A stretch of 64,000 nucleotides of DNA from an uncultured virus (IMG/VR IMGVR_UViG_3300021961_000033) (taxonomy: Duplodnaviria; Heunggongvirae; Uroviricota; Caudoviricetes), in IMG/VR virus record IMGVR_UViG_3300021961_000033, positions 1 to 64,000 of that record; one strand, written 5' to 3'. The position numbers and the translations under genes are program-made. The notes under the pieces are model-generated. The model was not told the origin of the DNA, did not search any database, and worked only from the letters and a program-made list of their open reading frames with translations. How positions within the stretch are numbered: the first letter of the stretch is position 1; each line of letters starts with the position of its first letter. Positions 7,284-30,497 of this stretch are shown piece by piece.

Positions 7284-8057
7284 ATGTCTATCACTGAGCA
7301 GAATTTTCAAGAAAGAAGCCTTTTATTTGCAAAACTTGCACAAATAGCATATCTAGACGAGAAAGGCGCCAAAGCCGCTGCAAAAGTTCTAGGATTTACA
7401 ACAACAAAATTTTATAACAGAGATGGCGCACAGGCATATCGTTTTCAAAACAAAGACGATTGTGTTATTGCATGCAGAGGCACACAGCCAACAGAACTTA
7501 ACGACATTAAAGCAGACTTACAGGCAATGCCAGTTGTAGCAGAGACAGTTAGCCGTGTACACCGTGGCTTCAAAGCAGAGGTAGACGAACTTTGGCCAAT
7601 GGTGCTTGAAGATATTCAGAAAACAAAACAAAAACTATGGTTTTGCGGCCACAGTTTAGGTGCAGCAATGGCAACTATTATGGCTAGCCGCTGTCACTTA
7701 TACGAAGGTATTCCAGCAGTAGAAGAACTATACACATATGGGTCACCTAGAGTAGGTTGGAAAAAATATGTAGATAGTTTGGCAGTTACACACCATCGCT
7801 GGGTAAACAATAACGACATTGTTACTCGTGTACCGTTGAGAATTATGGGTTATAGACACCATGGCGAGCAGCACTACTTAAACACCTGGGGTAATGTTCG
7901 TAACCCAACTGGTTTCCAGATGGTTAAGGACAGATTCCGCGGCATGTGGAGAGGTCTACTAGCAGGTAAGATTGATAACTTCGGTGACCATAGTATGGTT
8001 GAATATGTTAAACATCTTGAGAAATATGCTAGAGGAATGGAAACTCTTCAGATATAA
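7284..8057 (+). CDS. Class 3 lipase (alpha/beta hydrolase)
   Basis: IACRGT, VHRGF, GHSLG nucleophile elbow, TYGSPRVG, NDIVTRVP, DH. Confidence 0.92.
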   Translation: MSITEQNFQERSLLFAKLAQIAYLDEKGAKAAAKVLGFTTTKFYNRDGAQAYRFQNKDDCVIACRGTQPTELNDIKADLQAMPVVAETVSRVHRGFKAEVDELWPMVLEDIQKTKQKLWFCGHSLGAAMATIMASRCHLYEGIPAVEELYTYGSPRVGWKKYVDSLAVTHHRWVNNNDIVTRVPLRIMGYRHHGEQHYLNTWGNVRNPTGFQMVKDRFRGMWRGLLAGKIDNFGDHSMVEYVKHLEKYARGMETLQI

Positions 8058-21953: not shown

Positions 21954-22173
21954 TCTTCTTTAACCAAACACGAAAACTTCCACCATCTTTGTTTAACTCA
22001 ACTTCGCGAATTTTAGGATGGTTTCTTGCCCATGTTGGAAACTCATGCAGCATAAGTCCTTTACCTGTAATTACCTTCATGGACTTAACACCACGCCAAA
22101 AGGCCTGGTCTACTTCATTATTAAAATAAATCCAGCCTTCGTGTATTGTCATACCATGAAGATCTAAACTCAT
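21946..22173 (-). CDS. Stand-alone Smr (small MutS-related) domain protein
   Basis: LDLHG, VITGKG, GGSFRV. Confidence 0.85.
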   Translation of the reverse strand: MSLDLHGMTIHEGWIYFNNEVDQAFWRGVKSMKVITGKGLMLHEFPTWARNHPKIREVELNKDGGSFRVWLKKNA

Positions 22174-22673
22174 AACACCTTACTAATGTCTATTATTTCG
22201 TTCTGCTTGTTAATTTCTTTAGCACAATAGACACACCTTGGCTTGGGTCCAGTTTCAATAGGAATAGCTAGTATTTGGCCCTGTTTAATTTTAGGGAAAA
22301 ACCACTTAACATCAGTATACAAATCTACAATGTCAATAGGAAGATAGTCTGCTAAAAACCCGCTAATAGGATTAAAACTAAATGCTTTAAATCCTCTGTC
22401 ATTAAGGCTACTCAGGTTACACATTTCCAGGTCGCCATGCTCAGGTTCGCCAATTAGAATCTTCCAGTCCACTGGCATCTTAATAATATTTCCAGCTATC
22501 CGTAATACAAGTGCTGGCGCATTAAAACTTTCTAGAAATATAAGAGGAATAAAAAAGTAGTCTGGATTTACTGGATCTGAATTATCCAGTACAGCAAAAC
22601 GCAAATCATCTACCTCATCAGGTAGTTCATTCATTTCAAATGCTGCATCTTCAAGTGTTAATATTCTCACCAA
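22170..22673 (-). CDS. Conserved hypothetical protein
   Basis: DYFFIPLIFLESFNAPAL, KWFFPK. Confidence 0.7.
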   Translation of the reverse strand: MVRILTLEDAAFEMNELPDEVDDLRFAVLDNSDPVNPDYFFIPLIFLESFNAPALVLRIAGNIIKMPVDWKILIGEPEHGDLEMCNLSSLNDRGFKAFSFNPISGFLADYLPIDIVDLYTDVKWFFPKIKQGQILAIPIETGPKPRCVYCAKEINKQNEIIDISKVL

Positions 22674-23293
22674 TCTACCCTTTCATTTAATTTTGTTTTT
22701 ATATAATTGTCTAAATAATGCTTTAAAATTGTATATGACTCTGGCGCATAATGCCTAATACAAGGTTCCAAATTAGCGTCATTATCAAAACTCTCACCGC
22801 CATTGTCATACATATATTGATTGCCGCAAAACTCAAACAGTGGAACAATCCTTGGATTTTCCTGTATCCATTTAAGTTTTTCAAATGCTTTAAATCCGGT
22901 AATATGCACATTTTCAAACTTATTACACTGATCCCAGATCAAATATTTTATACCTTGTTGATCCAACCAACTAGCAAACATTATAATATTCATAAAAAGA
23001 TAGTCCCAGGATCTATAACAACTATCAGATAGTTGACCCTCTATTTTATAATGTTCAAACGGAGCAAGATCATATGCTCCTTCTATAGGTTGATCAACTA
23101 CTACTTTGCTTACTTCAAATCTAGTGCAAACTGTAATAGGTATAAAAACATAGACGGGTTTTCCGTTTACTGCTATCCATTCCATAGTAGTTCTTATACT
23201 TCTATAAAAACTGCCACCACCCCTACTAAGATTTACACCTGGGAAATCCTTCCATGCCGCGCCATAACTACACCCATTTAAAAATAAAGTCAT
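22667..23293 (-). CDS. SGNH hydrolase-like protein
   Basis: LNGCSY, NLSRGGGS, C-terminal RHY. Confidence 0.7.
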   Translation of the reverse strand: MTLFLNGCSYGAAWKDFPGVNLSRGGGSFYRSIRTTMEWIAVNGKPVYVFIPITVCTRFEVSKVVVDQPIEGAYDLAPFEHYKIEGQLSDSCYRSWDYLFMNIIMFASWLDQQGIKYLIWDQCNKFENVHITGFKAFEKLKWIQENPRIVPLFEFCGNQYMYDNGGESFDNDANLEPCIRHYAPESYTILKHYLDNYIKTKLNERVDW

Positions 23294-24747
23294 TTCCAGT
23301 CTACTTTCTGTACGTTAAATGGGTATTTTGCTTCAGTATAAAATGCTTTTCTTTTTGTTAGATGTCGTTTTGCAAATCTACAAGTACTTGTAATGTCCCA
23401 GATTTGAACAAAGTCCTTGTCTTCTGCTTTACGAATACCTCGCCCTATAGATTGTATAACTCTAACGAAGCTCTTACCAGGCTCCAAAAGTACGAGATTG
23501 AAAATGCGAGGGATATTAATACCCACAGCGGCAACACCATAAGTGGCCACAATAACCTTATCGCTAGAATCTGCGACTTCGTCATATTCTTGTTTACGAG
23601 CTTGTGCCTTCGTGCCACCGCTGACAAAAACGGCGCCCGGAATCCTCTGGGTAATTTTTGTTCCTGCATTTATCCTATCCACTAATACTAGGGTATTCCC
23701 TGTAAGTCTAATTTGTTCAATTACACCAGCAATGTAATCTATTCTATCTTCCTGCTCTAGTAGGTATTTTAGTTCACTCTGATAGTTTGTGTACTCTTTT
23801 AAGTCTATTAATTGTAACACATTCACTTCGCAATTTGCAAGTACTCCTTTTTCCTGTAAATCAGCAGCACTAATGTGATTAATAACTGGACCTAAACTGC
23901 ACACCAAACTGATCTTTTCAAAGTCTTCCTTGGGTACTGTTCCAGTTAATCCCCAGCGTATGGGTATCTGGCTCATTACGCCAGTGAGTAATGTCTTTAG
24001 TGCATCTGCTTTAGCCATATGCACCTCATCTACCATGATGCACACGACGCCCTCTAGAAACTCTTGTATAGTTATAGGAGCAACCTGGTTCTTTGTATTC
24101 TTAAGAAGTATGTTTAGGCTTTGCCAGGTACAGATGGTATGTGTATGCCCAAACTCTTTACGGTCTCCATAAAACACGCCCACATCTAACCCCATGTTGA
24201 TGTAGTCTGCTTCTGTTTGTGTCACCAAACTCTTGTTGGGCACAATAACAATAGTGCGTCCATGTGCTTCGCATCTGTGACTTAGCACTGCGGTTATAAG
24301 TGTTTTGCCAGCACCAGTTGCTACTTCTTGTAGGCTTTGTGGGTTAGTTAAAAAGTTATTAATAACTTCTACTTGATAGTCTCTGAGTATGATTGGCTGC
24401 CCTGCTGCTGGATGCTTGTCAGGCCATACTTTGTCAGCATAACTATTCTCATCCACTGGCTCCAGCGGATAATCCATCTGATAGTCTCTGACGTCATTAA
24501 GTGTAACATCATAACCGTCACTGCTAAGGATGGGAAGTATCTCAGGCAGCAAGTTAATATAGGTACTGCCGCCTAACTGGAAGAAAGCCATCTTGCCGTC
24601 CCAGCGTCCAAGTCTTACTGCTGGCATGTAACGAGCACCAGGTATCTCATACTTAAATTTATTACTCAACTTGCGGCGAGTATCCAAATCTAAGCCTTCT
24701 ATCTTAACATTAACTTCGTCTTTAACGTGTAATACGCAAGGCTTCAA
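23290..24747 (-). CDS. uvsW: SF2 recombination/repair helicase UvsW
   Basis: WDGK, LRDYQ, ATGAGKT, DEVH, GLTGT, QSIGRGIR. Confidence 0.93.
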   Translation of the reverse strand: MKPCVLHVKDEVNVKIEGLDLDTRRKLSNKFKYEIPGARYMPAVRLGRWDGKMAFFQLGGSTYINLLPEILPILSSDGYDVTLNDVRDYQMDYPLEPVDENSYADKVWPDKHPAAGQPIILRDYQVEVINNFLTNPQSLQEVATGAGKTLITAVLSHRCEAHGRTIVIVPNKSLVTQTEADYINMGLDVGVFYGDRKEFGHTHTICTWQSLNILLKNTKNQVAPITIQEFLEGVVCIMVDEVHMAKADALKTLLTGVMSQIPIRWGLTGTVPKEDFEKISLVCSLGPVINHISAADLQEKGVLANCEVNVLQLIDLKEYTNYQSELKYLLEQEDRIDYIAGVIEQIRLTGNTLVLVDRINAGTKITQRIPGAVFVSGGTKAQARKQEYDEVADSSDKVIVATYGVAAVGINIPRIFNLVLLEPGKSFVRVIQSIGRGIRKAEDKDFVQIWDITSTCRFAKRHLTKRKAFYTEAKYPFNVQKVDWK

Positions 24748-25381
24748 CTATCTTCTCCGCTACCTTTTGGTGACCTTCTTCAAGTGGATGACCACCAGGG
24801 CCTTGAGGAGTTCTGTAAGACCATTCCACAAGCCCTTCATATGGCCAACCTATAAAGTTATCGGTATCTATCATTTGAACATAGCCGTCACTATGCTTCA
24901 TATATCGTTTATTGCGGCGTTGATTGTCAAATGCTGATACAAATTTATAGTTTACATTATAACATTTTAAAAAGCTCTGTAAAAGAATAACTTGTCGTAA
25001 CCATCTACGGTATTCATGTTCTTCATTATTATAGGCTGTAATGTATTTTATTAATTGCTTACGGTAGGATAGTTTAGGATCTTGGTCAAACACACGACTG
25101 CTACATGCAGGCCAAATATCATATGCTCCCCATTCATCTGCATACTCGCAACGCCCAGCACTAGACCAGGATACTATAACCAAATCAGGCTTTATTTCGC
25201 CAACAGCCTGCATAGTTTTTTTAACCATAAACTCATTACCTACTCCTGGCCGGCCATCATTAATTAATTTATAATCAATGGCGTCTGCTACAAGTCTAGG
25301 CCAACAGGATTTCTCAGGATCGGTTAGTTCCTGTCCAAATGTAAAACTGTCACCTACCGTGTATAAAAGCATATCACTCAT
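24722..25381 (-). CDS. SGNH hydrolase-like protein
   Basis: VGDSFTFG, PGVGN, IVSWS..GR, GHPLEEGH. Confidence 0.82.
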   Translation of the reverse strand: MSDMLLYTVGDSFTFGQELTDPEKSCWPRLVADAIDYKLINDGRPGVGNEFMVKKTMQAVGEIKPDLVIVSWSSAGRCEYADEWGAYDIWPACSSRVFDQDPKLSYRKQLIKYITAYNNEEHEYRRWLRQVILLQSFLKCYNVNYKFVSAFDNQRRNKRYMKHSDGYVQMIDTDNFIGWPYEGLVEWSYRTPQGPGGHPLEEGHQKVAEKIVEALRITR

Positions 25382-25393
25382 ACTTTATTATAA

Positions 25394-25432
25394 TAAAAGA
25401 GTGGCGGTGTGTCTATTTCTAAACACACCGCC
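25394..25432 (-). terminator. Intrinsic terminator
   Basis: GGCGGUGUGUUUA-GAAA-UAGACACACCGCC then ACUCUUUU. Confidence 0.75.
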
Positions 25433-25500
25433 CAGTGTTAACTGCATCTGGAGGAGGAGAGGAGCAAGTGATACAGCTAACTAACTTGTAGTATACTACA
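25394..25500 (-). ncRNA. Candidate 3'UTR-derived small RNA with an anti-Shine-Dalgarno loop
   Basis: 12-bp stem 25437-25448/25470-25481, fully paired only on the minus strand (two G-U pairs), around loop ACUUGCUCCUCUCCUCCUCCA; followed by a GAAA-loop terminator. Confidence 0.55.
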
Positions 25501-26550
25501 TTATACTCGCTTCATGCAAGTACTTTCTGCAAGACTTTTCCACTTTTCTGATATTTTTTTAAGGTCACCAATCTTAAGAGCCATACGCAGGCTCATTTCG
25601 CGGAGTTTGTTGCGGTTAGCATACATAAAGTCTAGGATTTCCTGTTCTCCTTCTGGAGTAAAGCCATAGTCTGCACCCCACAACTTGCCAGTTCTAGCAA
25701 TCTGTTTGATGCGTAGGAACTTGTCACGCATTGTGTCTAGTGTAAGGTCCAGATAGTGGCAGCGTGATTGCAGTGCCTCTAAGTGATCCTGTAACCGTTT
25801 GCTCTTTACATTCTCGAACTTGATGTTTGTAATAAAGCAAGCAGTACCTTTAAACTCAAAGTCACTTGGAATGCCTTCACTACGCAATTTAGCACTGTCT
25901 GCATTCCAGAATATCTTACGCTTCTTTCCTGAGTCTAGTGCAGCCTTAAGAATGTTAAGTGCAAGGTCGTCCATAAGTACACTGTCACAGTCATCGAATA
26001 CCAGTACGCTACCTTTATCGCTGTACTCGTATAGTTTGGCATACAAGCCTAGTGCAGTCATTGCACCCTTGACAACTTCAAACTTACGCTTTTGACTGGC
26101 AACATCTTCAAAGATGCTTTGTGCTTCTAGTGTCTGTGTAACGCCATAGCTCTTGCCTACACCCGGAGGACCTGTAACAATCATTGCACGAATGTCACCG
26201 CTCTTAAGAGCACCTGTCATTTCGTTGAGGATTTCGAAACGCTCCTCAATCTCTTTCATGCGTTGCTCATCTTGAGCTTCTGTAAAGGTCGTTTGCTTTT
26301 TAGCTTTGATATCCCGATTAATGTCTAGTGCAGCCAGCTGACGCTTGTAAGCATCTGCTTCTACAAAGGTTAGATCCTTTTTGCTGCACTTAATACGCAC
26401 TGGGCGAGCATAGTCACTACCAAGGATGCTAGCATCCACAGTAATGTAGGACCCGCGGGCGCCAGTTTTAAAGCCCTTTACTACAGGGAACACTTTGTCT
26501 CTGATTTGCAGTTTTTGATACTGCCCGTCTGCGATAAGAACATAATCCAT
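25501..26550 (-). CDS. P-loop AAA-type ATPase (early gene)
   Basis: GPPGVGKS, VLVFDDCD, FITN, ALQSR. Confidence 0.85.
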   Translation of the reverse strand: MDYVLIADGQYQKLQIRDKVFPVVKGFKTGARGSYITVDASILGSDYARPVRIKCSKKDLTFVEADAYKRQLAALDINRDIKAKKQTTFTEAQDEQRMKEIEERFEILNEMTGALKSGDIRAMIVTGPPGVGKSYGVTQTLEAQSIFEDVASQKRKFEVVKGAMTALGLYAKLYEYSDKGSVLVFDDCDSVLMDDLALNILKAALDSGKKRKIFWNADSAKLRSEGIPSDFEFKGTACFITNIKFENVKSKRLQDHLEALQSRCHYLDLTLDTMRDKFLRIKQIARTGKLWGADYGFTPEGEQEILDFMYANRNKLREMSLRMALKIGDLKKISEKWKSLAESTCMKRV

Positions 26551-26702
26551 TAGTCTATCTCCACCTCTTCAACGGTGTAACGAACAATACTAGGATCACG
26601 AAGTAATTCAGTGCAGGCGTCGTTCATGCCTTTTACGGTGCCACGTGAAGTTTGGGAATAAGGGCCTTTTTCTGTGTAGGCTGTAATTACGAACTTTATC
26701 AT
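26550..26702 (-). CDS. 50-aa hypothetical early protein
   Basis: Not in the track: MIKFVITAYTEKGPYSQTSRGTVKGMNDACTELLRDPSIVRYTVEEVEID; strong GAGGAG RBS; TAATG overlap with the ATPase. Confidence 0.75.
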   Translation of the reverse strand: MIKFVITAYTEKGPYSQTSRGTVKGMNDACTELLRDPSIVRYTVEEVEID

Positions 26703-26727
26703 TTCTCTCTCTCCTCTTTATACCTTC

Positions 26728-26755
26728 ATAATAGCACGGATTGCTATTACGTCAA
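26728..26755 (-). promoter_or_regulatory. Early sigma70-type promoter
   Basis: TTGACG-16 bp-TATTAT with extended -10 TG. Confidence 0.75.
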
Positions 26756-26764
26756 CCATTTTTA

Positions 26765-26959
26765 TCAACTTTTATCCCATTCCCACAAATTTTCTAATTT
26801 GTCATATGGACTATAGTAACCAGCTGGTCTAGGACAGTGCGTACACCGAAAGCATCTGAATTTAGTGTCTATTCCTCCGTGTAAACAGTTAGAACAGTTT
26901 CTATCTGCCTCAACAGGCATACGCAATGCGTCCCAAAACTCTTGTTTTTTATCTTCCAT
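26765..26959 (-). CDS. Small Cys-rich (Zn-binding) protein
   Basis: CSNC...CFRCTHC. Confidence 0.6.
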   Translation of the reverse strand: MEDKKQEFWDALRMPVEADRNCSNCLHGGIDTKFRCFRCTHCPRPAGYYSPYDKLENLWEWDKS

Positions 26960-27181
26960 TTATGCTCGTGTGATGTCTATTTCACGCTTGTTAGCAAATG
27001 CCAGCAAATCATTTGCAAGTGTACGAGCTTCTTCACGGCTCAGTGTTACATACTGAAAGAATTCGTTACTAGCAAGATTACGGTAAGTGGAGGTGACCTG
27101 TACACAAACACCGCGGTTTTCTCCGCCCCAAAAACGAGTGAGCTGTAAACCTTCTGTGTTGCTTCTTAAATCGGTAGCCAT
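26960..27181 (-). CDS. Small early hypothetical protein
   Basis: LTRFWGGENRGVCVQVT; AAGGAGAG RBS. Confidence 0.75.
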   Translation of the reverse strand: MATDLRSNTEGLQLTRFWGGENRGVCVQVTSTYRNLASNEFFQYVTLSREEARTLANDLLAFANKREIDITRA

Positions 27182-27210
27182 TTGCTCTCTCCTTTTGTTT
27201 AACTATACCT

Positions 27211-27238
27211 ATATTAACACGAATAACGCAGTTGTCAA
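27211..27238 (-). promoter_or_regulatory. Early sigma70-type promoter
   Basis: TTGACA-16 bp-TAATAT with extended -10 TG. Confidence 0.78.
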
Positions 27239-27245
27239 CCAGTTT

Positions 27246-27437
27246 TTAAAGTGGCCTTACCTTATTAAAAGGGACAGGATACATTACACCGCCTAGTGCG
27301 GATTCAACTACAGCAGCCTTGTCTGTTACAGCAACTACTGTGCCACAAACGGTGCCTGTGCGTACATCAAACTTTACAAGGTTACCTACATTTGGCAGGC
27401 TTGCAAATAGCTCTTGTACACTAACTTCTTTGCTCAT
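27246..27437 (-). CDS. Small SH3/KOW-like early protein
   Basis: VGNLVKF...GTVVAVTDKAAVV; GGAGAG RBS. Confidence 0.65.
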   Translation of the reverse strand: MSKEVSVQELFASLPNVGNLVKFDVRTGTVCGTVVAVTDKAAVVESALGGVMYPVPFNKVRPL

Positions 27438-27466
27438 TGCTCTCTCCGTTTTCTTTAACTATGATC

Positions 27467-27547
27467 ATATTAACACGGATAGCCAGAAAGTCAACCAAAA
27501 TACAAAAAAAATATCCTGGTTGACACCATTAATAGGTGTGTTATCAT
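27467..27547. promoter_or_regulatory. Back-to-back divergent early promoters
   Basis: Minus: TTGACT(27494)-16-TAATAT. Plus: TTGACA(27520)-16-TATCAT. An A-tract lies between them. Confidence 0.78.
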
Positions 27548-27574
27548 AAGTATAGTTAATTAAAGGATGGACCT

Positions 27575-27820
27575 ATGAATACAATTATGATGGTCACTGC
27601 TGTTGCTGGCACAATAGTTGGCAATGCTTGGTTTACTGACATGGACGAATGTTTGGCTGCTCGCGCAAAGGTGATTTCGCAACCAGACGTAACTGCTAGT
27701 TGTATTATTACCCAGAAAGAAGAAGACAAAAGTGCTGTTATGTTTAGAATGTTTTCGGATATAATGGGCAATATGGCAACTGCACAAGAAGAAGCCCTTA
27801 ACAATAGCAAACCAAGATGA
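27575..27820 (+). CDS. Small, possibly exported protein with a Cys pair
   Basis: Hydrophobic N-terminus, F..MDEC...ASC. Confidence 0.65.
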   Translation: MNTIMMVTAVAGTIVGNAWFTDMDECLAARAKVISQPDVTASCIITQKEEDKSAVMFRMFSDIMGNMATAQEEALNNSKPR

Positions 27821-27957
27821 TAGCATTTTTACTATTAGTAATAATTGTTATACTCCTAGCACAATGGTTTCCCGGCGTGCTAGGATTTATCGGCTGGGTA
27901 ATAATTCTAGGCTTCCTAAGCCTGTTAGTATTATTGGTTATTGGATCATTTAGATAG
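27817..27957 (+). CDS. 46-aa hydrophobic membrane peptide
   Basis: Not in the track: MIAFLLLVIIVILLAQWFPGVLGFIGWVIILGFLSLLVLLVIGSFR; ATGA overlap with the upstream gene. Confidence 0.65.
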   Translation: MIAFLLLVIIVILLAQWFPGVLGFIGWVIILGFLSLLVLLVIGSFR

Positions 27958-29002
27958 TTTTCGCCCAGTTTTCGAATGCTACTAGGTTATTGATATACCA
28001 GGGCCTATTATAATCTGCTGGGTTACCTGATTCGTCTACATAACGAACTTTTCCTGGATAATTATCTATTTTTGCTTTTATAAAATCTGGATGGCAACAT
28101 ATATGTCGTTTGTGATTTGCTGAAGGAAAAGGAAATCCTGGCGTATGTATTCCGCCTACACTGCACGGGTTTGGCATTGTCCAGATTATATTAGTAACTC
28201 CAGCACCCGCAGTACTAATATATTTTTTCATTCCATTAAACAACACTATTTTTTCTGCTAGTGTATAGTTTTCCCCAAAAACTTCTGTATAGCCCAAACT
28301 TGATAAAATATCTACAACTTGATCTTCGTTTGTAAGACCGCGTTTTACAGTATTATCCTCGCCAATAATATCCTTTCGATTTTTTAAAGGATTTGCATGA
28401 GCACGTCTACTTAAATACACCCTTTCTATAGGTGGTAAATTTACTTTTTTATGTGCTAGTTGTATTAAATTATTAAGTTGGGTATATTGTTCTATACTGG
28501 GCCATATACGTTTACCAGTGCCGGGATCGTTACACATAGTATCACCAAAATATACTAATTCATATTGTGTATTTTCATCGGTTAGTTGGTAATCTATTCC
28601 TAACAATTCTAATAGTTCATAAACATAAGGAGGATGCTTTAGTGAACCTCCTTTGGGCGTTGGGCTCTGATTAAACATAAACTGCAAATCTGGTATACGT
28701 TCTTTTAACTCTAAATATCTACAAAGGCATCCAAAACTGTCCAGGAAAGTATGATAATAATTAAAAGTTGGTCTGGTATACCAATAAAAATATTTACCCT
28801 CTTTTTTATTAAACACTGGCTGGTGATCAGATATTTTTAAATGCTGAAGTGCTGCATTCTTATTCTTGCCCAACAATAGGGGATATATATCTTCGCCTTC
28901 TACAAATATTTCTTGTCCAGTTTTACCCAAGTCAAGTATTTGCACTTCCCTAAACAGCGCAATTCCCGTCTTGTCAAATCTTTCTCGTATATTTTGCATC
29001 AT
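27950..29002 (-). CDS. GT61-like glycosyltransferase (DUF563)
   Basis: NYYHTFLD, VYLSRR, RGLTNEDQV, E..TLAEKI.LF, STAGAGVTN. Confidence 0.78.
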   Translation of the reverse strand: MMQNIRERFDKTGIALFREVQILDLGKTGQEIFVEGEDIYPLLLGKNKNAALQHLKISDHQPVFNKKEGKYFYWYTRPTFNYYHTFLDSFGCLCRYLELKERIPDLQFMFNQSPTPKGGSLKHPPYVYELLELLGIDYQLTDENTQYELVYFGDTMCNDPGTGKRIWPSIEQYTQLNNLIQLAHKKVNLPPIERVYLSRRAHANPLKNRKDIIGEDNTVKRGLTNEDQVVDILSSLGYTEVFGENYTLAEKIVLFNGMKKYISTAGAGVTNIIWTMPNPCSVGGIHTPGFPFPSANHKRHICCHPDFIKAKIDNYPGKVRYVDESGNPADYNRPWYINNLVAFENWAKTI

Positions 29003-29682
29003 GAACTATAAAGGTTAATAACTTCTTTTTTCCAGATGTGATCGTATTCACAATCACGCATGTTTTCGAACCAGGGCCCACCTTCTGTATAGTGTAGGAC
29101 TTTGGGAGTACCATCAGTGCCTTCCTGATAGTGTCCTACTAACCAGTTCCATTCAGGGCCCAGTTCTCCTATTTCACTATCCGAACACCATTCAAAACGA
29201 TGCAAGTATGCACCTGTTTTACTATTAACCGTTTCTAAATCTAATCCCTTACAACTAGGATGCTCGCAGTTAAATATCATCATACTGCTCCAGTTCTTGC
29301 GAGGGTAGGGCAACTGTAACTGGCCGTCCATCTTTATACCTTCAGGAGGGTTGTAGTCATGTTTAACTACATACACTGCTTTAGACGGATCCAACCCTTT
29401 AATTAACTCACACGCATCTGTAAGCCACACCATGTCACTGTCACAAAACACTGCCCATCCAGCGTACTCGTTTAGGTAGGGTACTAAAAATCTTGTAAAG
29501 GTAAATTCAGTACTGGCAAGTTTGTCTATATCTCTCCAGTAGACTTTTTGTTCTCTTAATTCATGCTGTTTAAGTGGAATAACATTTACTTTTTTACGAA
29601 ATGTTCTTCTTAAGATACTATGCTCACATACCTGGTAAGCAATGTCTTCTCTGCTATCCCAGCCAACATATATATTGAACAT
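28999..29682 (-). CDS. GT-A glycosyltransferase (GT8-like)
   Basis: YVGWDSRED, STEFTFTRFLVP, FCDSDM, PRKNWSS, LHYTEGGPW. Confidence 0.85.
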   Translation of the reverse strand: MFNIYVGWDSREDIAYQVCEHSILRRTFRKKVNVIPLKQHELREQKVYWRDIDKLASTEFTFTRFLVPYLNEYAGWAVFCDSDMVWLTDACELIKGLDPSKAVYVVKHDYNPPEGIKMDGQLQLPYPRKNWSSMMIFNCEHPSCKGLDLETVNSKTGAYLHRFEWCSDSEIGELGPEWNWLVGHYQEGTDGTPKVLHYTEGGPWFENMRDCEYDHIWKKEVINLYSS

Positions 29683-29732
29683 TTTTGCGAATTACCTTAT
29701 AATATACACATATATTTATAAGGACAAATCTT

Positions 29733-30497
29733 ATGAAAATAGTTTTAGCAACTGGTGGATTCGATCCCATACATTCTGGCCATATTAGTTATTTTAAAGC
29801 GGCAAGACAGTTAGGCGATCGCCTAATTATAGGTGTTAACAGTGACGCATGGTTAGCAAGAAAAAAAGGCAGAAGTTTTATGCCCTGGCAAGAGCGTTCC
29901 ACCATTGTTGAAAGTTTAAGTGTGGTTGACGAAATTGTTGCCTTTCCTGACGATGATAACTCAGCTATTGGGGCAATACAGCGTGTAAAGGATAAATACC
30001 CTGACGCACAAATTGTATTTGTTAACGGTGGTGATAGGACTGCTGACAACATCCCAGAAATGGTGTTCGATGATGTTGAGTTTGTATTTGGTGTAGGCGG
30101 CGAGAATAAAGCAAATAGTTCAAGTTGGATTTTAGAAGAGTGGAAAGCTCCTAAAACCCAGAGACAATGGGGATATTATCGAGTAGTGCACGAGTATGGC
30201 AGTCATACAAAGTTGAAAGAACTGGCAGTAGATCCAGGCAGCAAACTATCAATGCAAAAGCACCAAGAGCGATCTGAACACTGGTTTGTAGCAGAAGGTA
30301 CTGCTACAGTTTATACAATTAATACAAGTAGTGATTACGAACTGTTTGGAGTTTATAATAAACACCAAAACCTTCATATACCTGTTGGCATGTGGCATCA
30401 GCTCGCCAATGAAACAGATAAACCTCTTAAGCTGGTTGAAATACAATATGGCACCAATTGTGTTGAAGAAGATATAGAACGTTTACCATTAGAATAA
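29733..30497 (+). CDS. Cytidylyltransferase/adenylyltransferase fused to a mannose-6-P isomerase-type cupin
   Basis: TGGFDPIHSGH (HxGH), NGGDR, RQWG, LSMQKH..RSEHW, EIQYG..EEDIER. Confidence 0.88.
   Translation: MKIVLATGGFDPIHSGHISYFKAARQLGDRLIIGVNSDAWLARKKGRSFMPWQERSTIVESLSVVDEIVAFPDDDNSAIGAIQRVKDKYPDAQIVFVNGGDRTADNIPEMVFDDVEFVFGVGGENKANSSSWILEEWKAPKTQRQWGYYRVVHEYGSHTKLKELAVDPGSKLSMQKHQERSEHWFVAEGTATVYTINTSSDYELFGVYNKHQNLHIPVGMWHQLANETDKPLKLVEIQYGTNCVEEDIERLPLE

Follow-up and report, generated by a model that had tools for sequence, protein, structure and literature searches.

The window, i.e. the whole stretch of DNA analysed here, covers the initial 64 kb of an IMG/VR virus record of 117,201 bases; since this record is estimated to be about 32% complete, it stems from a large phage. 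The minus strand carries, in the direction of transcription, several small ORFs, an ATPase gene, a gap of 119 nt, a GDSL/DUF6071 gene and the gene of a UvsW-like helicase. The genes and the promoter surrounding the gap are as follows:

26550–26702, minus strand: 50-aa ORF, the first gene behind promoter P3 (see below); its stop codon overlaps the ATPase start codon (TAATG).
25501–26550, minus strand: gene of an AAA-type ATPase (349 aa, from the ORF list), the final gene of the early operon.
25387–25415, minus strand: sigma-70-type promoter of the GDSL gene, with a −35 box TAGACA (25415–25410), a 17-nt spacer and a −10 box TATAAT (25392–25387).
24722–25381, minus strand: GDSL/SGNH-like gene (DUF6071), downstream of the element studied here.

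The ATPase matches phrog_1250 (1.3e-78) and, weakly, AAA_16; its best named relatives are found in PA5oct-like Pseudomonas jumbo phages, with 47% identity. It is a homologue of the T4-type NrdC.10 protein, as tblastn matches include the annotated nrdC.10 genes of RB51, PP01 and Aeromonas phage 31. To our knowledge, NrdC.10-like ATPases occur widely among T4-like and jumbo phages, with no known function.

The gap harbors a noncoding element (25500–25393, minus strand) composed of a small palindrome, a hairpin with a C/U loop and a terminator:

25487–25500, minus strand: 14-nt palindrome immediately 3' of the ATPase stop codon, containing the −10-like sequence TATACT.
25437–25481, minus strand: hairpin, referred to as the anti-leader hairpin, with a 12-bp stem (25481–25470 paired with 25448–25437) that includes two G–U pairs.
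25469–25449, minus strand: 21-nt loop of this hairpin, made of C and U only apart from its first bases, ACUUG, and its last A.
25393–25432, minus strand: intrinsic terminator, with a 13-bp stem and a GAAA loop (25432–25403) followed by the U-rich tail ACTCTTTTAT.

The loop thus lies 34–50 nt 3' of the ATPase stop codon, ahead of the terminator. The palindrome, the 12-bp stem and the GAAA-loop terminator, which a preliminary description of this DNA had reported, are all present on the minus strand, and RNAfold returns exactly this structure for the minus-strand RNA, with a minimum free energy of −41.4 kcal/mol (z-score of −5.79, none of 200 shuffled sequences being as stable), as compared to −32.2 kcal/mol for the plus strand (z-score of −1.76, 13 of 200 shuffles being equally stable). 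Seven of the 13 pairs of the terminator stem are G–C pairs and a U-rich tail follows, as expected of an intrinsic (rho-independent) terminator. Note that the −35 box of the GDSL promoter sits in the 3' arm of this stem, so that terminator and promoter overlap, a layout that recurs in the relatives described below. The C/U run is the single one of its kind associated with a stem in the whole 117,201-base record, and a search of Rfam with positions 24000–28000 (E-values up to 10) yielded no family match, with one chance-level snoRNA match elsewhere (E-value of 8.2).

A 68-aa ORF on the plus strand (25278–25484), which overlaps the element, is most likely spurious, given that the element does not code for protein and that its conservation concerns the opposite strand. 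We also discarded a coding reading of the hairpin itself, since the variation in loop length does not preserve a frame and, as judged by eye, an ORF runs through the hairpin in loci L008–L010 only, as well as the idea that the tract is a ribosome-binding site of the opposite strand, since the plus-strand tract precedes a GTG codon followed by a stop codon seven codons on (again by eye). A mimic of the 16S rRNA tail or a decoy binding S1 was likewise set aside, as we found no testable support for either.

To examine the conservation of the element, we collected relatives of the ATPase gene from viral contigs, keeping the best 80 of 290 loci (designated L followed by a number), and a wider sample, in which the best 80 of at least 595 relatives were kept. 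In many of the best 80 of 290 loci, the DNA following the ATPase stop codon displays the same layout with different stem sequences. The preliminary description had suggested such a comparison as a check for covariation of the stems, and covariation is what an alignment of 21 distinct copies of the element reveals: eight of the nine hairpin pairs scored show changes on both sides, 98.3% of the cells being paired, and the covariation score was reached by none of 500 shuffles, with 33–43% of the cells paired in slid controls. Compensatory changes were also found in six of the 13 terminator pairs. In the hairpin stem, cells with a G–U pair outnumber unpaired cells, and these G–U pairs exist on the transcribed strand only. 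Together with the difference between the strands in folding stability, this covariation bears out the earlier proposal that selection acts at the RNA level on the minus-strand transcript. A covariance model derived from the element matched 23 of the 80 related loci (E-value < 1e-6), always on the ATPase strand; the remaining 57 gave no plus-strand match at E-values up to 1.

Weaker second matches to the covariance model were obtained in L027, L029, L030 and L075. In these loci, tandem hairpin–terminator units lie behind the ATPase gene (L027, 3776–3978; L029, 866–1140; L030, 2216–2490; L075, 680–860), the first unit of each pair having another loop (…CUCUCUCUUCUUCC…) and another terminator. 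Besides, an A-rich motif with TTGAC(A/G)G at its end is located directly 5' of the stem in L024, L082, L029, L030 and L027, and is doubled in tandem in L029 and L030; no −10 box is found at the usual spacing from it. As to named phages, a near-identity DNA search gave no match, nothing comparable is present at the homologous place in PA5oct and Atu_ph07, and the nrdC.10 region of the T4-like phage PP01 is devoid of it. In a quick tree of the ATPases, the feature is wholly absent from one clade of 25 rows and from several rows elsewhere.

The pyrimidine loop contains repeated CCUCC and is an anti-Shine–Dalgarno (anti-SD) tract, as previously noted. Its potential partners in the window are found behind early promoters upstream of the ATPase gene:

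27494–27467, minus strand: promoter P1; its leader contains GGAGAGAGCAA at 27447–27437, the predicted loop partner on the longest transcript.
27238–27211, minus strand: promoter P2; its leader contains GGAGAGAGCAA at 27192–27182.
26728–26755, minus strand: promoter P3, with TTGACG, 16 nt, TATTAT, and TG ahead of the −10 box.
26703–26716, minus strand: purine tract GAGGAGAGAGAGAA of the P3 leader, which ends at the start codon and is the predicted loop partner on the P3 transcript.

P1, P2 and P3 belong to a common promoter–leader cassette (TTGAC...TG.TA...T, ...AGTTAAA..., a GGAG-type tract, ATG), which occurs in many related contigs. In the present record it is found at 27494–27435, 27238–27179 and 26755–26700, and again outside the window, at about 69.9 and 69.3 kb. 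From P1 down to position 25432, the minus strand has no predicted terminator-like site; judging from this arrangement of sites, it is plausible that the leaders of P1–P3 and the 3' hairpin are carried by one transcript. The ATPase gene of the window has no leader of its own and the partner of the loop is the leader of the upstream small gene, with eight perfect pairs and bulged extensions.

The matches to ribosome-binding sites quoted in the preliminary description exist: GGAGAGAGCAA at 27192–27182 and 27447–27437, GAGGAGAG within 26716–26703, and GGGAGAAGAGCAA ahead of the plus-strand gene at 7284. The duplex predicted between the loop and the P3 leader amounts to −19.2 kcal/mol, a value equalled at one of the genome's 65 other SD-led starts, and that with the P2 leader to −18.1 kcal/mol; altogether, at least three early leaders of the window share the complementary motif (−17 to −19 kcal/mol). 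The claim that the loop fits the early leaders of the phage beyond the GGAG core also stood up in 15 loci, in which the energies of the duplexes between the loop and the leader of its own operon range from −10.5 to −22.6 kcal/mol: of the 171 other SD-led starts in these loci, 161 score worse than the own-operon leader and 10 are as good. Composition-preserving shuffles of the loop were as good in 0–15% of 300 trials per locus; the match is partly compositional because low-complexity C/U repeats can pair in several registers. In the relatives, the 3 kb around the element yielded no consistent long purine target other than the leaders. In the L206/L207 clade, the hairpin and its C/U loop are kept, yet only 6 nt match the ATPase leader.

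Does the loop act on ribosome-binding sites in general? That the element is a generic anti-SD sponge shutting off host translation would be in keeping with the CCUCC repeats and with the fact that the loop reaches a pairing energy of −12 kcal/mol or better at 19 of 138 start regions, versus 6.5% of intragenic control windows. However, the specificity of the loop extends past GGAG into leader-specific bases, one clade uses a non-GGAG pair (see below), there is one copy per genome, and the stoichiometric titration of all host mRNAs by a single RNA would be implausible. We consider this explanation most improbable, and the part of the earlier proposal that invoked a shut-off of SD-led translation in the host is left unsupported by these data.

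In many more distant clades, some of which lack the C/U hairpin, the segment exposed behind the ATPase gene matches the leader of its own clade. Leader and 3' segment differ between clades yet remain complementary:

L204, L205, L208 and L209: leader GGAGGAGCAA, 3' segment UUGCUCCUCC.
L221 and L284: leader AGGAGUAACUA, 3' segment UAGUUACUCCU, with a G–U intermediate in L219/L223 and the C–G form in L220.
L303: leader CUAGGAGAA, 3' segment UUCUCCUAG.
L310, L316, L323, L331 and L345: leader AGGAGCUA, 3' segment UAGCUCCU.
L344: leader UAGGAGUUCA, 3' segment its complement.
L341: leader AGCUAGAC, 3' segment its complement.
L358: leader UGUUGAAAGGC, of a non-GGAG type, 3' segment GCCUUUCAACA; 10 nt pair in L353.
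L318 and L325: pairing over 13 nt, interrupted by one bulge.

The exposed segment follows the leader in at least 10 sequence-distinct forms. In several of the distant clades it is again located in the large loop of a 7–13-bp hairpin ahead of the terminator, and in others it forms a single-stranded stretch flanked by hairpins. In operons with additional genes after the ATPase gene, the segment is found once, at the end of the operon (at +629 in L218, +242 in L234 and +1217 in L236–L238); no segment was found in L258, which also has inserted genes, and the match in L233 occurs in another context only. The nrdC.10 region of PP01 contains no such segment.

When the search was anchored on the SD sequence (GGAG/CUCC), a perfect complement of at least 8 nt was present in 23 of 39 cognate leader–segment pairs versus 245 of 1482 (16.5%) non-cognate pairs; when only the longest perfect complement was considered, at least 8 nt were reached by 30 cognate pairs of 84 unique loci versus 769 of 6972 non-cognate pairs, both non-cognate rates being inflated by shared ancestry. 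An unanchored test of the longest complement against dinucleotide shuffles of the 3' region gave p ≤ 0.01 in 14 of the 84 loci only and, by class median, in 7 of 59 leader classes; this test is weak, as long chance matches arise from A/T runs and from the U tracts of terminators. A cross-group matrix of energies was uninformative because single-linkage grouping had lumped unrelated leaders.

These data bear on the idea that the element is a mere 3' stabiliser or an accessory of the terminator–promoter junction, the complementarity being a by-product, for instance of inverted repeats in a cassette shuffled at the DNA level. The terminator does overlap the next promoter, and the junction stays together as a module when the neighbouring genes change. 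A stabiliser, however, needs no particular loop sequence, whereas the segment tracks the leader in all the forms listed above; moreover, the G–U pairs of the stem, which exist on the transcribed strand only and are more frequent than unpaired cells, the G–U intermediate of the leader pair in L219/L223, and the poor folding of the plus strand all speak against it. We regard this explanation as very unlikely.

In L219–L225 and L279–L286, which lack the hairpin, the first letters of the segment are the stop codon UAG, whose partner in the leader is CUA, so that a terminating ribosome would open the duplex. This arrangement would suit a protective or activating role of the 5'–3' pairing, either as a nuclease shield of the 5' end or as a means of handing terminating ribosomes back to the start, and a 5'/3' UTR interaction linked to mRNA stability is reported for hbs of B. 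subtilis (PMC5737220). Yet pairing over the SD sequence, and often over the AUG, normally blocks initiation, the loop of the window lies, at its distance from the stop codon, outside a terminating ribosome, and distant anti-SD-like sequences lowered expression in one systematic study (PMC12697547). A positive role of the pairing thus appears unlikely to us.

We then computed partition functions of whole predicted transcripts of 1.1–1.3 kb. In these calculations, which describe an equilibrium without ribosomes or co-transcriptional kinetics, the SD bases pair with the 3' segment with a probability of about 0.9–1.0, and also in the minimum free energy structure, for the window, L209, L282, L344 and L318. 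More specifically, the purine tract of the 1326-nt P3 transcript of the window pairs with the 3' UTR with probabilities of 0.88–1.0, a pairing present in the minimum free energy structure, and in the 2067-nt P1 transcript the loop is predicted to pair with the P1 leader (probability of about 0.9). The predicted pairing covers the SD sequence and often the AUG too. In controls without the motif (L243, L266 and PP01), the pairing probability is 0.09 at most; for L207, in which the hairpin is present, the predicted 5'–3' pairing is about 0.02.

The reading that we favour, and to which we assign a probability of roughly 0.55, is that of an interaction between the 5' and 3' UTRs, similar to that of the icaR mRNA, which would hide the ribosome site of the NrdC.10-like ATPase operon once the transcript is complete. 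Host RNA polymerase would (i) start at P1–P3 and read to the sole terminator (25432–25403); (ii) the 12-bp stem ahead of this terminator would display the 21-nt pyrimidine loop, the predicted complement of the stretch from the SD sequence to the AUG in the operon's own leader; (iii) ribosomes would load while the transcript, of about 1.3–2.1 kb, is still unfinished; (iv) once the 3' end is made, the loop would pair with whichever free leader lies closest to the 5' end of that RNA, so that the ribosome-binding site would be hidden and initiation would stop, with the leader–loop duplex possibly cleaved as well. Since initiation would stop upon completion of the 3' end, the output per transcript would be a limited burst of protein. 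We infer that the leader and the 3' end are on one RNA in vivo, that their pairing represses translation and that this repression is timed as described.

The same loop could in principle pair in trans with the sister early leaders carrying the motif, and the preliminary description had proposed an sRNA derived from the 3' UTR. According to this possible, though tentative, alternative, a trans-acting small RNA of about 90 nt, arising from its own promoter or from processing of the 3' UTR, pairs with several early leaders and ends the early phase. The succession of an accessible seed in a large loop and a terminator is the usual layout of sRNAs, the motif is shared by several early leaders of the window, the tandem second copies in L027, L029, L030 and L075 would suit an independent sRNA gene, and folding predicts no cis pairing with the ATPase leader in the L206/L207 clade. 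A −10-like box (TATAAT, TATACT or TACAAT) is present 17–18 nt past a coding TTGCAT in the window, L004/5, L007 and L008–L013, the relatives carrying TAGTATAAT or TACAAT at the position of the palindrome; it would place the start of transcription 0–12 nt before the stem. However, the −35 box of this putative promoter is weak (3 of 6 positions) and lies inside the coding sequence, the promoter scan makes no call there, and the −10-like box is absent from L002, L003, L006, L026 and others. A phage precedent exists in the c4 antisense RNA of phages P1 and P7, which blocks translation through loops that pair around a ribosome-binding site (PMC12197685); c4 is processed, acts in trans, belongs to temperate phages and serves antirepressor control, and it differs from the present element in both sequence and structure. 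Importantly, it is with the leader of its own operon that the segment co-varies, and in the folding of whole transcripts these two pair in cis; pairing within the transcript therefore fits the data at least as well as an sRNA acting in trans, and needs no extra assumption.

Going further, pairing within the transcript might be a completion timer common to a large family of phage early operons and might have a second role, in which a nuclease-resistant hairpin–terminator fragment would accumulate as a small RNA closing all sister early leaders; we consider this extended scheme doubtful. If true, it would constitute an RNA-only counterpart of the RegB/RegA early shut-off of T4, and in the clade whose segment starts with a stop codon, terminating ribosomes would gate the switch.

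We know of very few experimental cases in which a bacterial or phage mRNA is controlled by pairing of its own two ends. Exposed C/U-rich loops also serve as seeds against purine-rich ribosome-binding sites in RsaE and similar sRNAs of Firmicutes; the phage element shares with them the exposed C/U loop directed against the SD sequence, but these sRNAs are chromosomal, trans-acting and found in Firmicutes. The closest system is the icaR mRNA of Staphylococcus aureus, in which an anti-SD motif of the 3' UTR was shown experimentally to pair with the SD sequence of the same mRNA (PMC3868564). The likeness consists in a pyrimidine motif of the 3' UTR complementary to the SD region of its own transcript, with a block of initiation and possibly cleavage of the duplex predicted for the phage; unlike icaR, a bacterial regulator gene, the phage system concerns an early operon, its motif is placed in the loop of a covarying hairpin adjacent to the terminator, and the pairing often reaches the AUG. 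The evidence is experimental for icaR and consists of co-variation across many clades for the phage element, and the two are unrelated in sequence. Long-range repression has a further precedent in B. subtilis, where pyrimidine-rich anti-SD-like tracts (8-mers), hundreds of nucleotides away, pair with the ribosome-binding site and inhibit initiation (Gill et al., PMC12697547). According to that study, such tracts are depleted from genes, whereas the phage tract is conserved, forms part of a structure and matches its leader, so that the same physics seems here to have been put to use by selection. As for early phage genes, the RegB endoribonuclease of T4 inactivates early mRNAs via their GGAG SD sequences (PMC1702504); RegB is a functional analogue as regards early-gene switch-off, but it is a protein, a nuclease with many early mRNAs as targets, whereas the phage element is an RNA, present in a single copy and predicted to act on one operon.

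Our literature searches found neither a phage anti-SD RNA nor a phage 5'–3' UTR interaction, and nrdC.10 came up in a single paper. If the favoured reading holds, control by end-to-end pairing would exist as a conserved module behind the NrdC.10-like ATPase gene in many uncultured large phages, with natural compensatory changes as evidence for the pairing of leader and tail. It also suggests that the NrdC.10-like ATPase must be held to a short early burst, and would provide a design principle for the timing of phage genes, that of a transcript turning itself off when finished.

Finally, the region downstream of the element calls for some remarks. The TAGACA-17-TATAAT promoter of the GDSL gene is the top promoter match within 22000–30000 (11 of 12 positions), and the conservation of the top of the terminator is explained by its containing the −35 box of this promoter. 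When the terminator-top 14-mer was searched against viral contigs, at least 118 stretches were retrieved, mostly unrelated, among which three new element loci (L082, L105 and L171). The hairpin behind nrdC.10 of PP01 (L359, 2160–2195) contains AGAAATAGA, also present in the top of the terminator of the window, which may be due to chance or to a common promoter element. The −10 box of this promoter is separated from the GDSL start codon, ATG, by 5 nt in the window and by 5–7 nt in the relatives (by eye), so that the GDSL mRNA is probably leaderless and independent of SD pairing; judging from these sequences, the GDSL/SGNH-like gene probably lies outside the regulated operon. In the window, the GDSL-like and helicase genes are two ORFs (24722–25381 and 23290–24747) that overlap by 26 nt; in the relative L016 (3332–5431), the GDSL-like domain and the UvsW-like helicase are fused in one 699-aa ORF.
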